A DNA stretch of 32,000 bases from Candidatus Hermodarchaeota archaeon (lineage in GTDB: Archaea > Asgardarchaeota > Heimdallarchaeia > Hodarchaeales > Hodarchaeaceae), in assembly GCA_048886185.1 (NCBI GenBank), contig JBHLKY010000033.1, positions 1,621 through 33,620 on the forward strand, in the 5' to 3' direction. Made by a program: the position numbers and the translations under genes. Positions 27,746-32,000 of this stretch are shown here, piece by piece (the stretch's first letter is position 1; each line of letters opens with the position of its first letter). The notes below the pieces were generated by a model, which did not search any database, was not told the DNA's origin, and worked only from the letters and a program-made list of their open reading frames with translations.

Positions 27746-28978
27746 ATGAAATTCAAGCACAAGAAGAAACTGTTAATAATGATAATACTTTTTGCTATCA
27801 TTTCAACTAACTCTTCCATAATTCCTTCGAATCAAGGATCGGCCAGTTCCAACCAGATGATTCAAAATATTGCAATAATCTTAGATTCTTCAGAGTTTTA
27901 TGATTCTGATTTTATTGATGATGTTCTAAATGGGTTTGATCAAGTCAATCAAACCTATAATATTAATTATACAGTATTCAGGCTAGCTAATTACACCTCA
28001 CCCCCAATTCCGTTCGAAAAAACAGTCATAAATCGTTATCCCTATAAAGCATTTTACACTATAGATGGTTACCAAACTAACCATACTCAATTGGCAACTG
28101 AGCTAATTAGTACCGAACAATATGACATGATTGTTTTCATGGGTTATGAGCTACGACGTGAAAAGAAGGAATATTTCCTACCTTCCCAATATAATGACAC
28201 AAAATTCCTTTTTTATGATTTATCTGGTGAAATTCCTTCCCATCCTGGGGCCTCATTGGGAGATAATGTTGCAGTAATCAGTTTTAATGAAACTCAGGCT
28301 GGTTTTATTGCAGGAACCTTGGCAGCTGTAACAATATCTCCACAACCTCAAAAAGTTGCTATGATTGGGACTTATAGAAATAGTAGGGATGTATTTGATC
28401 CCAAACCAGACCCCCGCTCAGGACAACTTATGTTAGGATTTCAAAGTGGTTTTTTACGAAAGAATGCTGATGTGACATTTCTAATATCCTATATAGATTA
28501 TTATTGGGGAAGCTGGACAAGTTACACGAAAGCCAAAGCATTAGCACAGGATTTAGATGACCAGGGTTATGAATTGATATTCTCTGCTTTACAAAATAAC
28601 AATACATTGGGAATCATTGATGGATTTACGAAGTCTGTTGTAGCTGTTGATTCAAATCTCGTGCAAAGAGTTGCTAAAAATAATACTAAGGTCATTATGG
28701 CTATGTTTGAAGCTTTTAATAAAAGTCAGAATGGCTTTCTCCCTGGAGTATTTAGTTTCGATTTAGCAGATAACGTCTTTTATCCTAATGGGTGGGATGA
28801 TAGTGAGTTGGTGAACCAAGCTATGGGGGAAATTTATACCGATGTGGTAATAAATAAAATTCCAATAGGTACTGAAATAAAACACGCTGAGAATACCCCA
28901 GGTTTCAGTATTATAGCTATTTTTGGATTAATATTATCCATACCAATTTCTAGACGACTTATTCGAAATAAAAGCTGA
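27746..28978 (+). CDS. BMP (basic membrane protein)-family substrate-binding protein with PGF-like C-terminal anchor
   Basis: D..F....LNG, FNETQAGFIAGTLAA, F..GF..G, A..L...G..LIF, V.AVDS pattern of the Bmp/PnrA family. Signal peptide has no lipobox Cys; ends TPGFSIIAIFGLILSIPISRRLIRNKS. Confidence 0.8.
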   Translation: MKFKHKKKLLIMIILFAIISTNSSIIPSNQGSASSNQMIQNIAIILDSSEFYDSDFIDDVLNGFDQVNQTYNINYTVFRLANYTSPPIPFEKTVINRYPYKAFYTIDGYQTNHTQLATELISTEQYDMIVFMGYELRREKKEYFLPSQYNDTKFLFYDLSGEIPSHPGASLGDNVAVISFNETQAGFIAGTLAAVTISPQPQKVAMIGTYRNSRDVFDPKPDPRSGQLMLGFQSGFLRKNADVTFLISYIDYYWGSWTSYTKAKALAQDLDDQGYELIFSALQNNNTLGIIDGFTKSVVAVDSNLVQRVAKNNTKVIMAMFEAFNKSQNGFLPGVFSFDLADNVFYPNGWDDSELVNQAMGEIYTDVVINKIPIGTEIKHAENTPGFSIIAIFGLILSIPISRRLIRNKS

Positions 28979-29024: not shown

Positions 29025-29843
29025 ATGAACCTCACTGACGATGCTAAGACCCAAGATAAAATCTGTGTCATTGGGGGGTCAGGTTTCTATGATTTCTTGG
29101 AGGAACCATTAGAAATCTCTGTAATGACTCCTTTCGATTCTAGGGCAATTACAATATATCATCAAGAACGTGATGGGAAAAATCTGTATTTTTTACCACG
29201 TCACGGGGGCAAGCATTCCATTCCACCCCATAAAATCAATTTTAAGGCCAATCTTTTTGCTCTTCATTTGCTATCAATTCCCAGAGTGATCGCGACAAGT
29301 GCTGTTGGGAGTTTAAGAGACTCTATAAACCCAGGAGATTACGTAATACTTGATCAATTCATCGACTTTGTACGTCCATTAACTTTTTTTGATGGAGATT
29401 TCAGTATCGAATTTCCTCAAGGAATCAAAAAATCGGGGGTGGTACATTTAGATATGACAGATCCCTACTGTTTAGAGATGCGCAAGATTCTTTCAAGAAT
29501 TCTAGAAGATGACCCAAAAACCCATTTTCAAGGAACATATGCAACAACAATGGGCCCTCGTTTTGAAACTCCAGCTGAGATCAAAGCTTTACAACAAATG
29601 GGTGCTGATGTTGTTGGTATGACAAATTCTTCAGAAGCGATTCTGTGTCGTGAACTTGGTATATGTTACAGTGTCATTGCAGTAGTAACAAATAAGGCAG
29701 CTGGTCTTCAGAAGCAGCTTAGCCATAATGAGGTTCTAGATATCTTTAATTCTCGTTCTACTCATCTTAAACAAGTTTTCCATGAAGTATTCTCCCAGAT
29801 ACCAAAGCAAAAGAATTGTTCTTGCGCATGGTACAACCAGTAA
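29025..29843 (+). CDS. mtnP: MTAP/PNP-family nucleoside phosphorylase, probably 6-oxopurine (methylthioinosine/inosine) specific
   Basis: IGGSGFY, LPRHG..H..PPH.IN..AN, LDQFID, GPRFETPAE, GADVVGMT, VVTNKAAG. Confidence 0.85.
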   Translation: MNLTDDAKTQDKICVIGGSGFYDFLEEPLEISVMTPFDSRAITIYHQERDGKNLYFLPRHGGKHSIPPHKINFKANLFALHLLSIPRVIATSAVGSLRDSINPGDYVILDQFIDFVRPLTFFDGDFSIEFPQGIKKSGVVHLDMTDPYCLEMRKILSRILEDDPKTHFQGTYATTMGPRFETPAEIKALQQMGADVVGMTNSSEAILCRELGICYSVIAVVTNKAAGLQKQLSHNEVLDIFNSRSTHLKQVFHEVFSQIPKQKNCSCAWYNQ

Positions 29844-29985: not shown

Positions 29986-30597
29986 TTAACTATTTATTTG
30001 AGATTCTCTCCACTTTTTATAATTCCTAAGACAACTTGTACAGCAAAAGTAATGGCGAATATCTTCAATTTTTTCTGTTTCGTAACTATCACTTATTTGT
30101 TTTCCACAATATTCGCAATTGATATTAAGAAGCTGACTTTGTTCAGGAATACGGTGGGGATTGGAGAAAACCTCTTTTAGGAGAATATTTATCTTCGCAC
30201 CTTCAATACAGGAGAAGGATTTGATTTTTTCAAACAGGATTTGATGCATGTTTAGAGGTTGGTTTTGCGTTATAATTAACATATTGAATTCATCTAATAC
30301 TTCAAATACTTCTCTTACTTCGTTAATTGTATTTAGAAAATTGATGAACTCTTTTATCATTTCTTTTTTGACTTTAAGGTGTATTAACGCAGCACTTTCG
30401 TTTGTTAATGAATGAGGGTTCAAATAAATACCAATATGATGAATTACCCCAATTTTCATGAGCTTTTCAATTCGTGATTTCACTGTAGGGACTGTGAGAT
30501 TAAGCTCATCAGCAATTTCTGAATATGTTGATCGGCCATTTTCATTTAAACGATTGAGTATTGTTAAATCGGTATTATCCAACTCAATTTTTTGCAT
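29986..30597 (-). CDS. copR: Lrp/AsnC-family regulator with C-terminal TRASH domain (archaeal copper regulator CopR/CopT-like)
   Basis: N-terminal Lrp HTH (LDNTDLTILNRL..NGRSTYSEIA), AsnC-type middle domain, TRASH CEYCGK...YFCCTSC. Divergent from a copper-ATPase-like gene. Confidence 0.85.
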   Translation of the reverse strand: MQKIELDNTDLTILNRLNENGRSTYSEIADELNLTVPTVKSRIEKLMKIGVIHHIGIYLNPHSLTNESAALIHLKVKKEMIKEFINFLNTINEVREVFEVLDEFNMLIITQNQPLNMHQILFEKIKSFSCIEGAKINILLKEVFSNPHRIPEQSQLLNINCEYCGKQISDSYETEKIEDIRHYFCCTSCLRNYKKWRESQINS

Positions 30598-30962
30598 TAA
30601 ACCACATTCACTATAGCTTTGTAATAATATCTAGATGAAAGATTTTAAAATTTTAAGTTACTTTAAAGTGAACCAGATTCGGCCTCTCTAGCTACAATAG
30701 AGAAGAGTGTTTTCAACACCACTCTACGAATTAATTCACATAATACTTATTATATTGAGTTTTTTATTTTTGTTAACTAATACCTAGCTTGAATGGATAT
30801 CTGTTTTTCTTGTTTCAACTTTTCGATCCTTTAATTTTTAAGTACATAGATCCTTAAGAAAAAGTGAAACATACTTATTCAGAATGAAATGTCTGTTAAA
30901 GCTTAGGATAGTAAAACAACTAGTGTTACTAATTGAACTTTGCGGAAAAATCGAAGTAAAAA

Positions 30963-30983
30963 TGATAAAATGAAGTTTTATCA
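30963..30983. promoter_or_regulatory. 8-5-8 inverted repeat, candidate CopR operator
   Basis: TGATAAAA-TGAAG-TTTTATCA, ending 20 nt upstream of the ATG at 31004 in the divergent copR/cop intergenic region. Confidence 0.5.
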
Positions 30984-31003
30984 ATAATGTGAGGTTAGAG
31001 AAA

Positions 31004-31189
31004 ATGACTGAGAAATTAAAATGTCAAGTCTGCGATTATACTGAACCAATCCCAATGCATTGCAAACAACCAATGCATATTGAGAAGATTGATGGAAAAG
31101 AGACACTTGTGTGTTGGATGGGGACCTCCTGTGGCGTAAAAGATCTTCCTTCGCACCATAACAAACCAATGCAAATAGAAACCATATAG
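31004..31189 (+). CDS. Small Cys/His/Met-rich metal-binding protein, putative copper chaperone
   Basis: 61 aa from ATG 31004: CQVC...PMHCKQPMH...CWMGTSC...PSHHNKPM. Nearly duplicated at the start of the next gene. Confidence 0.85.
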   Translation: MTEKLKCQVCDYTEPIPMHCKQPMHIEKIDGKETLVCWMGTSCGVKDLPSHHNKPMQIETI

Positions 31190-31386
31190 TAATGTATATT
31201 ATAGGTGATCAAATGGCTGAAAAATTTAAATGTCAAATCTGCGATTATACTGAACCAATTCCAATGCATTGTAGACAACCAATGCATGTGGAAACTATTG
31301 AAGGTAAAGAGCAATTAGTATGCTGGATGGGACCGGAATGTGGAGTACAAGATATTCCAACTCACCATAAGAAACCAATGCAAATA
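31004..31386 (+). repeat. Tandem duplication of a ~175-nt coding unit (31004-31177 vs 31213-31386)
   Basis: The first 75 nt of each copy match at 68 positions; the proteins are identical at 44 of the first 58 residues (counted by hand). Confidence 0.95.
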
Positions 31387-32000
31387 ATCGATGATGCAAG
31401 ATTACCTGCCCAGGAGAAAGCTATTCAGGAAACTGACTCTTTTCGTCCTACAACAACACCTAATGGAGAGGGAAAGCTTTTGAAAACTCCAATACCATCC
31501 GTCCAAGAACTTCAATTTGCGAATTTAGGAATCACTGGGATGACATGTGCATCATGCGTCTCTACAGTTGAAAAGGGATTACTAAAAGTAGAGGGTGTTC
31601 ATGATGTTTCACTCAATTTGGTGACCGAAAAAGCCCAGGTTAAATATGATCCTCAAAAAACTGATGTGAATTCATTAATCAAAGCAGTTGAGAATGTGGG
31701 TTATGGTGCAAAGGATATTAGTCCTTCTACCCAAACAGAGCTAAAAACAATTAATCTAGCAATCACTGGTATGACTTGTGCAAGTTGTGTTAATACGATT
31801 GAAACCCAACTAAACAAACAATCTGGAATAGTCGAAACTAGTGTTAATCTAGCTACAGAGAGGGCTCGAATAACCTTCGATCCTAGTTCTATTACAGAAA
31901 GTCAGATAATAAACGCTATTGACAATGTGGGTTATGGTGCAAAGAAAATATCTTCTTATAGAGTAAGTTCTGAAGATAAAGAAAGTCTTGAAAGAGCTAA
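31213..32000 (+). CDS. copA: Probable Cu(I)-translocating P1B-ATPase, N-terminal part (runs off the window; absent from the ORF track)
   Basis: Own translation from ATG 31213 (AGGTGAT RBS) is open to the window end: MAEKFKCQICDY..., then two HMA domains with GMTCASC at 31537 and 31768. The ATPase core lies outside the window, so the copA call is inferred. Confidence 0.78.
   Translation, partial: MAEKFKCQICDYTEPIPMHCRQPMHVETIEGKEQLVCWMGPECGVQDIPTHHKKPMQIIDDARLPAQEKAIQETDSFRPTTTPNGEGKLLKTPIPSVQELQFANLGITGMTCASCVSTVEKGLLKVEGVHDVSLNLVTEKAQVKYDPQKTDVNSLIKAVENVGYGAKDISPSTQTELKTINLAITGMTCASCVNTIETQLNKQSGIVETSVNLATERARITFDPSSITESQIINAIDNVGYGAKKISSYRVSSEDKESLERA

Follow-up and report, generated by a model that had tools for sequence, protein, structure and literature searches.

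A tandem desulforedoxin-like domain present both as a free small protein and at the N-terminus of a copper pump in a Candidatus Hermodarchaeota archaeon

P1B-type ATPases and their soluble chaperones constitute a textbook system of metal traffic, the mechanism of which is known nearly entirely from HMA-type domains. Partners in such systems pair like with like: CopZ works with the HMA domains of its pump, and CupA, which is membrane-anchored, shares a cupredoxin-like fold with the N-terminal domain of Streptococcus pneumoniae CopA. Here we analyze a 32,000-nucleotide stretch of DNA from a Candidatus Hermodarchaeota archaeon (assembly GCA_048886185.1, contig JBHLKY010000033.1, positions 1,621 to 33,620 of the forward strand; hereafter the window), where a free 61-residue protein, P0001, and the first 58 residues of the CopA copper pump encoded directly downstream are two copies of one domain, to which we refer as the twin desulforedoxin (Dx)-like domain. 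The arrangement recalls that of CopZ/Atx1 and the P1B HMA domains (PF00403) in that a small free protein and a homologous pump domain, both with candidate Cys ligands, are encoded by side-by-side genes next to a copper regulator; the twin Dx-like domain, however, lacks the GMxCxxC motif and precedes two ordinary HMA domains in CopA. It likewise recalls CupA and S. pneumoniae CopA, where a non-HMA fold is common to the free chaperone and the pump’s N-terminal domain, but the fold is a different one, there is no sequence relation and it is CupA that is anchored in the membrane. The features at issue, in window coordinates, are as follows.

31004..31189, plus strand: free 61-residue twin Dx-like protein P0001, a candidate metallochaperone
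31010..31090, plus strand: half 1 of P0001 (residues 3-29), with the C7-x2-C10 knuckle, P17-x-H19-C20 and P23-M24
31100..31186, plus strand: half 2 of P0001 (residues 33-61), with C37-W-M-G-x2-C43-G, P49-x-H51-H52 and P55-M56
31213..31386, plus strand: N-terminal twin Dx-like domain of CopA (residues 1-58), 76% identical to P0001

The two copies align without gaps, with 44 of 58 positions identical and 51 of 58 similar (BLASTP E 6e-37), and have in common all Cys (7, 10, 20, 37, 43), all His (19, 25, 51, 52) and the Met residues of the PM motifs, as the initial annotation of the window had described. At the DNA level they are identical at 141 of 174 bases (81%), and 19 of the 33 base differences fall on third codon positions, with 11 codons differing only synonymously and 14 non-synonymously. 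Because the differences favor third positions and many are synonymous, both copies have been maintained as coding sequence.

The division of each unit into two half-repeats, likewise proposed at the outset, is borne out by profile comparison over an alignment of 70 diverse members, in which halves 1 and 2 match each other with an hhalign probability of 97.5% (E 5.6e-12); on this evidence the two halves are homologous and the domain is an internal duplication. Each follows the layout L-x-C-(x2 or x5)-C-G ... P-x-H-[C/H]-x2-P-M and then a strand. Across the same 70 members C7, C10, H19, C20, M24, C37, G40 and C43 are invariant and P17, M39 (96%) and P49 are at least 90% conserved, while W38, M56 and H51 each stand at 87%, the last with Cys in 10%, and position 52 holds Cys in 59% of members and His in 40%. 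The variation at positions 51 and 52 is between His and Cys, and changes of candidate ligands are therefore ligand-for-ligand swaps. The AlphaFold2 model built on the 70-sequence alignment is all-beta, with a mean predicted local distance difference test score of 93.9, a predicted template-modeling score of 0.72 and an identical order of elements in both halves. Three further small proteins (P0108, P0111 and P0113) consist of two half-1 type modules only, that is, C-x2-C ... P-x-H-[CH]-x2-P-M twice, which suggests that the half-module can be shuffled independently.

Remote homology of each half to the Dx module is detectable at the level of sequence profiles. In desulforedoxin itself, four Cys residues per module hold one metal and two modules dimerize. 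The module, which also forms the N-terminal domain of desulfoferrodoxin (PF06397; 1DXG, 1CFW, 1DFX), resembles the twin domain in its succession of a strand, a K-C-x-x-C-G knuckle and an adjacent ligand pair followed by G-x-P-M; furthermore, two modules make up one unit in the twin domain, as they do in the Dx homodimer. Our comparison set comprised 24 true Desulfoferrod_N domains from Asgard genomes, where true members score 40-78 bits, and has the consensus Y-K-C-x-x-C-G-N-I-V-E-V-L-H-x-G-x-G-x-L-V-C-C-G-Q-P-M. Against this set half 1 reached an hhalign probability of 94.4% (E 9.4e-8, score 29.3, 24 columns), compared with scores of at most 12.1 for 40 column shuffles of the Dx alignment and 11.4 for the reversed alignment, a stronger likeness than the ‘only loosely’ desulforedoxin-like character first ascribed to the domain. 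The alignment, which contains a 7-residue gap, pairs both knuckle Cys residues, the second Cys of the CC pair and the P-M motif, and H19 occupies the place of the first Cys of that pair. Half 2 is tied to Dx because it is homologous to half 1. The twin domain differs from Dx in having both modules in one chain, a knuckle-to-pair loop that is 7 residues shorter, His where Dx has the first Cys of CC (HC, or HH in this clade) and, in half 2, a C-x5-C knuckle with a conserved W-M-G. The genomic context differs as well, twin Dx-like domains being found with copper pumps and Dx with defense against oxygen radicals.

No member of the family reaches the PF06397 gathering score of 23 bits, and P0001 gives no row for that model at E ≤ 10. 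Scanned over the 70 members, the model yields three matches, the best at E 0.011, and in the Hermodarchaeota genome it picks up only a distant paralogue of the domain, at 14.7 bits. The same model exceeds its cut-off in 60 of 121 Asgard genomes, never on a twin Dx-like domain. As for the Fe(Cys)4 site of Dx, the knuckle is present, but the adjacent pair is H19-C20 in half 1 and H51-H52 (H/C) in half 2, and no half has four Cys residues. Lacking both a threshold match to PF06397 and a Cys4 site, the domain is therefore treated here as a new Dx-derived family and not as a member of PF06397.

At E ≤ 10, Pfam and NCBIfam returned only chance-level rows for P0001; the 70 members scanned singly against Pfam produced only generic zinc-ribbon rows below threshold; and PDB chain sequences contained no meaningful match in either a phmmer search or one with the 70-sequence profile. 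In the ESM Atlas the clusters of the family are all labeled ‘hypothetical protein’ and have no common Pfam family, and a shape search there recovered unnamed clusters of the same family at TM 0.81-0.85 and generic zinc ribbons at TM ≤ 0.5. Foldseek found nothing in the PDB at E ≤ 0.001 (1dfx appears at E 4), and the VIA comparisons were all weak: the best Z was 2.8 in the wide VIA-align run and 3.6 in the PDB search (the Rpb9 zinc ribbon), PriA CRR and MCM came in at Z 2-2.8 and 1cfw/1dxg at Z 2.7 (root-mean-square deviation 2.7, 33/36 residues). The HMA model (PF00403) matches the HMA domains of CopA only, and neither CopA residues 1-61 nor P0001, the predicted structure of which is all-beta, while the TRASH and YHS models (PF08394, PF24273, PF04945; C-x2-C-x19-22-C-x3-C) match the neighboring regulator P0002 and, in fusion proteins, regions other than the twin Dx-like domain, which they never hit; the early judgment that the domain is unlike HMA, TRASH and YHS thus stands. 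Full-text literature searches with motif strings, with desulforedoxin, P-type ATPase and copper, and with Asgard and CopA did not find the domain, and a paper on the terminal metal-binding domains (MBDs) of P1B ATPases names ferredoxin-like and cupredoxin-like folds and the rubredoxin-knuckle MBD of LpCopA, not a twin Dx-like domain (PMC11970713). We conclude that, in the resources searched, the twin Dx-like domain is an unnamed family built from a known module. It had been called ‘unfamiliar’, which is right insofar as no described family covers it and wrong insofar as its halves are remote relatives of the Dx module.

Among the alternative MBD folds already described, which include the cupredoxin-like one, an HMBD-type module of LpCopA coordinates Cu or Ag through trigonal sulfur ligands (PMC11970713). 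In HMBD (PF19335; the Legionella CopA MBD 8OVL and the N-termini of SilB/CusB), too, a Cu+ pump bears a short Cys/Met/His module that combines a C-x2-C-G knuckle with a P-M-H-like motif, yet the motifs come in the reverse order (C-P-M-H-P, then the knuckle C-P-x-C-G-M) within a single module of about 30 residues. HMBD gave no row for P0001 and is not among the 25 most-matched of the 66 families returned for the 70 members, and the VIA match to 8ovl is weak (Z 2.0, 30 residues, root-mean-square deviation 1.6). We also considered the middle unit of the domain (PMHC ... C-x5-C-G) as an HMBD-like module and found no support for this: in a weak test with two HMBD sequences, hhalign aligned only the five columns of the knuckle, at 30% probability. 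Beyond the C-x2-C-G knuckle, neither hmmscan nor hhalign found any relation to HMBD.

An exhaustive search of 1.84 billion representatives recovered 85 clusters at 50% identity with E ≤ 1e-3, and 31 with E ≤ 1e-10. One of the 85, the 2166-residue P0092 with nine matching stretches, was left out as a false positive of composition, being a eukaryote-type array of C2H2 zinc fingers. A word-index search added free homologues of 56-67 residues and 31 longer proteins, the named ones all from Asgard metagenome-assembled genomes (MAGs; Hod-, Heimdall-, Thor- and Loki/Promethearchaeota), and free orthologues of P0001 (59-67 residues) are present in other Asgard MAGs at 69-77% identity. In species genomes, one per species, we confirmed 259 loci with the 14-sequence alignment A2 and the pattern LVCWMGxxCG, by which members without that motif are under-counted. 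All 259 lie in MAGs, of Asgard archaea, Bathyarchaeota, Binatota/Binataceae (many labeled ‘delta proteobacterium’), Acidiferrales, Deferrimicrobium and Zhuqueibacter. Within the archaeon’s own phylum, 180 of 301 sampled genomes match at E ≤ 1e-5 (67 of 90 high-quality ones), including all 20 genomes of its own family and 72 of 76 and 63 of 68 in two other large families; several families of the phylum gave no match among the genomes searched, and in one Asgard family the count was 0 of 19.

The Hermodarchaeota genome itself holds three members, one free, one fused and one distant paralogue on another contig. This third member (62 residues; C11:53811-53999, L003:1492-1680, plus strand; profile E 9.1e-14) has CC at positions 51-52, Ala at the conserved Trp position and, past the second knuckle, a C-H-H stretch, and lies not beside a pump but between genes for a 448-residue multi-pass membrane protein and a 409-residue FAD-dependent, geranylgeranyl-reductase-like protein. 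A ‘CC’ subfamily comprises P0104, P0109, P0110, P0115, P0119 and P0124.

Architectures were counted over the 80 best loci of the species genomes. The domain lies inside the open reading frame (ORF) of a P-type ATPase in 67 of them (18 N-terminal, 49 C-terminal); a further five have a free domain with a pump within 4 kb, and seven a free domain with no pump in view. The CPC, YN and MxxSS motifs are all present in 61 of 65 full-length pumps, and the association of the domain with Cu+-type P1B ATPases is near-exclusive. N-terminal copies are single or in tandem, the second tandem copy having HC in place of HH. C-terminal copies lie downstream of YHS/TRASH-like regions in Asgard pumps, and in Binatota such a copy ends an otherwise ordinary CopA. 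The layout of our window, in which the free gene immediately precedes a copA with a fused copy, occurs at seven loci (L006-L009, L012, L014, L015).

Apart from pumps, six clusters of 190-260 residues from other metagenomes (P0052, P0054, P0065, P0073, P0077, P0082) fuse, in this order from the N-terminus, a roadblock/longin-like region, TRASH and the twin Dx-like domain, and may represent metal-sensing adaptors. These fusions have a GFLSA motif, one of them matches Longin at 2e-4, an example lies at L123:5001-5762, and one is encoded near genes for a small YHS protein, cytochrome b and cytochrome c assembly. P0075 combines TRASH with the twin Dx-like domain, and the 134-residue P0025, from a 725-bp ENA contig, joins the domain to a helix-turn-helix (HTH) of the sigma-70 region-4 type (PF08281, 4.3e-10), possibly as a one-component metal-responsive transcription factor.

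In the window, the domain genes are accompanied by the following features.

29986..30597, minus strand: P0002 (203 residues), a CopR-like regulator gene with an Lrp/AsnC-type winged HTH and a C-terminal TRASH domain
30598..31003, no strand: 406-bp intergenic region between the regulator and the free-domain gene, read directly
31213..32000, plus strand: 5' part of copA, which continues past the window end
31531..31704, plus strand: HMA domain 1 of CopA (GMTCASC; C33:33151-33324, E 6.9e-19, Pfam HMA)
31759..31935, plus strand: HMA domain 2 of CopA (GMTCASC; C33:33379-33555, E 4.1e-16)

The gene downstream of P0001, already read as a probable copA in the initial annotation, is by its motifs a Cu+/Ag+-exporting P1B-1 ATPase. 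Its full frame (L005:1834-4860, 1009 codons including a gap of Ns) encodes, after the twin Dx-like domain (E 1.4e-29 with the family profile, alignment A1, in a search of the genome), two Pfam HMA domains (E 1.9e-36; the first at residues 107-164), and the translation contains CPCALGLATP, FFYNVIGIP, MALSSVSVV, DKTGT and GDGINDAP, that is, the CPC, YN, MxxSS, DKTGT and GDGxNDxP motifs. In the established Arguello motif classification, the set of CPC in TM4, YN in TM5 and MxxSS in TM6 is the Cu+/Ag+ P1B-1 signature. Just past the window end (C33 about 33621-33800, L005:2620-2800) the frame enters the run of Ns, translated as 34 X and flanked on either side by an identical 25-residue stretch (NVGYGAKKISSYRVSSEDKESLERA), an arrangement that suggests an unmerged join of scaffolds or masking, not a biological repeat.

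The start of copA at 31213, 23 bases past the P0001 stop and behind a Shine-Dalgarno (SD)-like AGGTGAT at 31203-31209, is favored over an ATG at 31192 because homologues also begin M-x-x-x-L-K-C. P0001 itself is preceded by an SD-like GAGGT at 30991-30995, 8 nt ahead of its ATG. A TAATGT hexamer stands ahead of both SD-like motifs (positions 30985-31003 and 31187-31212), and given this common leader sequence the original duplication may have taken in part of the 5' leader. The region at 30598..31003, in which no intrinsic terminator was found, is presumed to hold a divergent promoter and the operator.

The regulator P0002 matches HTH_24 (1e-14), HTH_AsnC (1.6e-12), TRASH_HVO_1752_C (9.1e-8) and Arc_trans_TRASH (1.2e-6) in Pfam, and 11 related loci have an orthologue (55-82% identity by tblastn) encoded divergently upstream of the domain and copA genes. 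The cop cluster of Sulfolobales (CopR/CopT-CopA) likewise consists of a divergent Lrp/AsnC-type TRASH regulator, a gene for a small metal-binding protein and copA. The window has the same three elements, its TRASH regulator being confirmed by Pfam, but here the small protein is twin Dx-like and not a TRASH protein, and the same domain is found on the pump. Two genes farther upstream, for a 272-residue protein that by eye resembles the purine/methylthioadenosine phosphorylase family (29025-29843, plus strand) and a 410-residue secreted or anchored protein with a signal-like N-terminus and a hydrophobic C-terminal segment (27746-28978, plus strand), have no evident tie to the cop genes, and an ORF of 306+ residues (L005:5081-5998, plus strand) begins 218 bp past the copA stop and runs off the contig end.

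To trace the pair, we computed a maximum-likelihood tree of 98 domain copies over 61 columns, in which many forks are unresolved. The free copies encoded beside copA group together, with one long-branch intruder (SH-aLRT 94), and separately from the N-terminal copies found at their loci; indeed, the free copies of L012, L014 and L015 and the N-terminal copies of these three loci form two separate starred clades. As free and N-terminal copies fall into separate clades, the duplication is older than the split between these genomes, and both copies have been retained. At L009 the free and fused copies are nearly identical, which suggests occasional conversion between them.

We propose that the domain is a metal-binding family of two shortened Dx-like modules in tandem, the free copy acting as a chaperone or buffer and the fused copy as an acceptor or sensor for Cu(I), a reading to which we assign a probability of roughly 60%. 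By analogy with Dx, the single chain would mimic the Dx dimer and present two metal sites at its surface: a putative Cys3His site 1 (C7, C10, H19, C20) and a site 2 that would be Cys2His2 here (C37, C43, H51, H52) and Cys3His in most of the family. The physiological metal would be Cu(I) rather than Zn or Fe. Ahead of the two HMA domains, the fused copy could accept metal in the cytosol or act as a regulatory sensor for CopA, and the free copy could be the soluble partner that passes Cu(I) to the like domain or to the pump, as suggested by the like-with-like rule of CopZ with HMA domains and CupA with CopA. A complex prediction of P0001 with the N-terminal domain of CopA scored 0.01 against a mark of 0.32 and speaks neither for nor against binding. 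In its widest form, which we put forward only tentatively, the proposal would make the domain the main cytosolic copper module of Asgard archaea and Binatota, a Cu(I)-binding and possibly multinuclear or redox-tuned mimic of the Dx dimer that replaces CopZ, gates P1B pumps from either terminus and feeds TRASH/HTH regulators.

Several points count against the Cu(I) proposal. Half 2 alone compares to Dx with a probability of only 36%, over the HC-x2-PM stretch, and the fold matches are all weak (Z ≤ 3.6). The pairing of knuckles and H[C/H] pairs in the two sites could possibly be swapped. Tetrahedral Cys3His and Cys2His2 sets are found more typically with structural Zn(II) than with Cu(I), and the conserved Met four residues past the second H[C/H] residue is also found in the Fe-binding desulforedoxin, so that it need not be a Cu ligand. 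Finally, no free CopZ-type HMA protein was detected in the Hermodarchaeota genome (96% complete), where HMA occurs only inside two P-type ATPases, yet small HMA ORFs are present in 3-4 of 21 genomes of the same genus, and in the Asgard family where 0 of 19 genomes carry the domain HMA is likewise almost confined to pumps. Free HMA proteins being rare in Asgard archaea with or without the domain, the missing CopZ is not specific support. The distribution of HMA across the genus and the domain-less family thus gives no support to a specific role of the free protein as a substitute for an absent CopZ.

In a different reading, inert Zn(II) merely folds the domain, the fused copy carries no copper and is a protein-protein docking or autoinhibitory piece of the pump, and the free protein is a regulator or a competitor for docking. 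Cys3His and Cys2His2 are classical Zn sites, the sub-threshold Pfam rows are all zinc ribbons and so are the nearest fold matches (Rpb9, followed by PriA CRR and MCM), and regulatory tails lie at the two ends of the pump, which is where the domain is found; terminal MBDs have indeed been argued to act as sensors for autoinhibitory tails (PMC11970713). A purely structural Zn ribbon is, however, not expected to follow copper systems so exclusively: the domain co-occurs with Cu+-type pumps and TRASH/YHS and not with varied proteins, a free copy has long been maintained at the position of copZ, and Met 24, 39 and 56 are strictly or nearly conserved. On balance we regard a purely structural Zn module as unlikely, albeit as a serious contender.

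The descent from Dx raises the further idea of an iron redox center that reduces Cu(II) to Cu(I) or senses the redox state on behalf of the pump, a role reportedly suggested for the N-terminal [2Fe-2S]/Zn domain of CopZ from Archaeoglobus fulgidus. That precedent of a redox metal domain on an archaeal copper chaperone and the remote homology of half 1 to an Fe(Cys)4 module speak in its favor, but the first Cys of the pair is His in all members in half 1 and in 87% in half 2, and position 52 is often His, so that no site is Cys4; moreover, the loop has 7 residues fewer than that of Dx, and Asgard genomes also encode true Dx/Dfx domains, which are clearly a family apart. We consider an iron center of this kind improbable. 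Last, the free 61-residue ORF could be an unexpressed, decaying partial duplicate of the copA 5' end, with the fused copy alone being of consequence, given that the ORF is short, that the same TAATGT context precedes both copies and that a search for sequencing runs listed sediment-metagenome DNA and no RNA. Its frame is intact behind an SD-like motif, however, the differences from the fused copy are mostly at third positions, all ligand residues are kept and free orthologues are intact in many genomes as a lineage of their own, and such decay thus seems very unlikely indeed. The reading of a Cu(I)-handling pair of free and fused copies remains the one we prefer.

Taken together, the twin Dx-like domain is probably a new domain family within a known kind, that of metal-binding domains of P1B ATPases with their cognate chaperones, its copper role being read from its context. 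New here are the homology of the two halves, the relation to the Dx profile, the size and distribution of the family, the recurring cluster of a copR-like gene, the free gene and copA, and the separate lineage of the free copies. The family would add to the HMA-based picture a widespread non-HMA metal-binding domain and chaperone pair, with Binatota as further common hosts, and, if the proposed role is true, a third independent fold pair of chaperone and pump domain, recruited from an iron redox protein. It would then be a case of a metal site re-purposed, through duplication and a Cys-to-His change, from an iron desulforedoxin into a module of a copper system. For annotation, the domain accounts for stretches of 60-100 residues left unassigned at the termini of numerous CopA proteins from archaea and bacteria and for many ‘hypothetical’ 60-residue ORFs beside copA genes, and since it is small (58 residues), confidently predicted and likely to be expressed easily, its metal specificity and any transfer of metal to HMA domains are directly testable.

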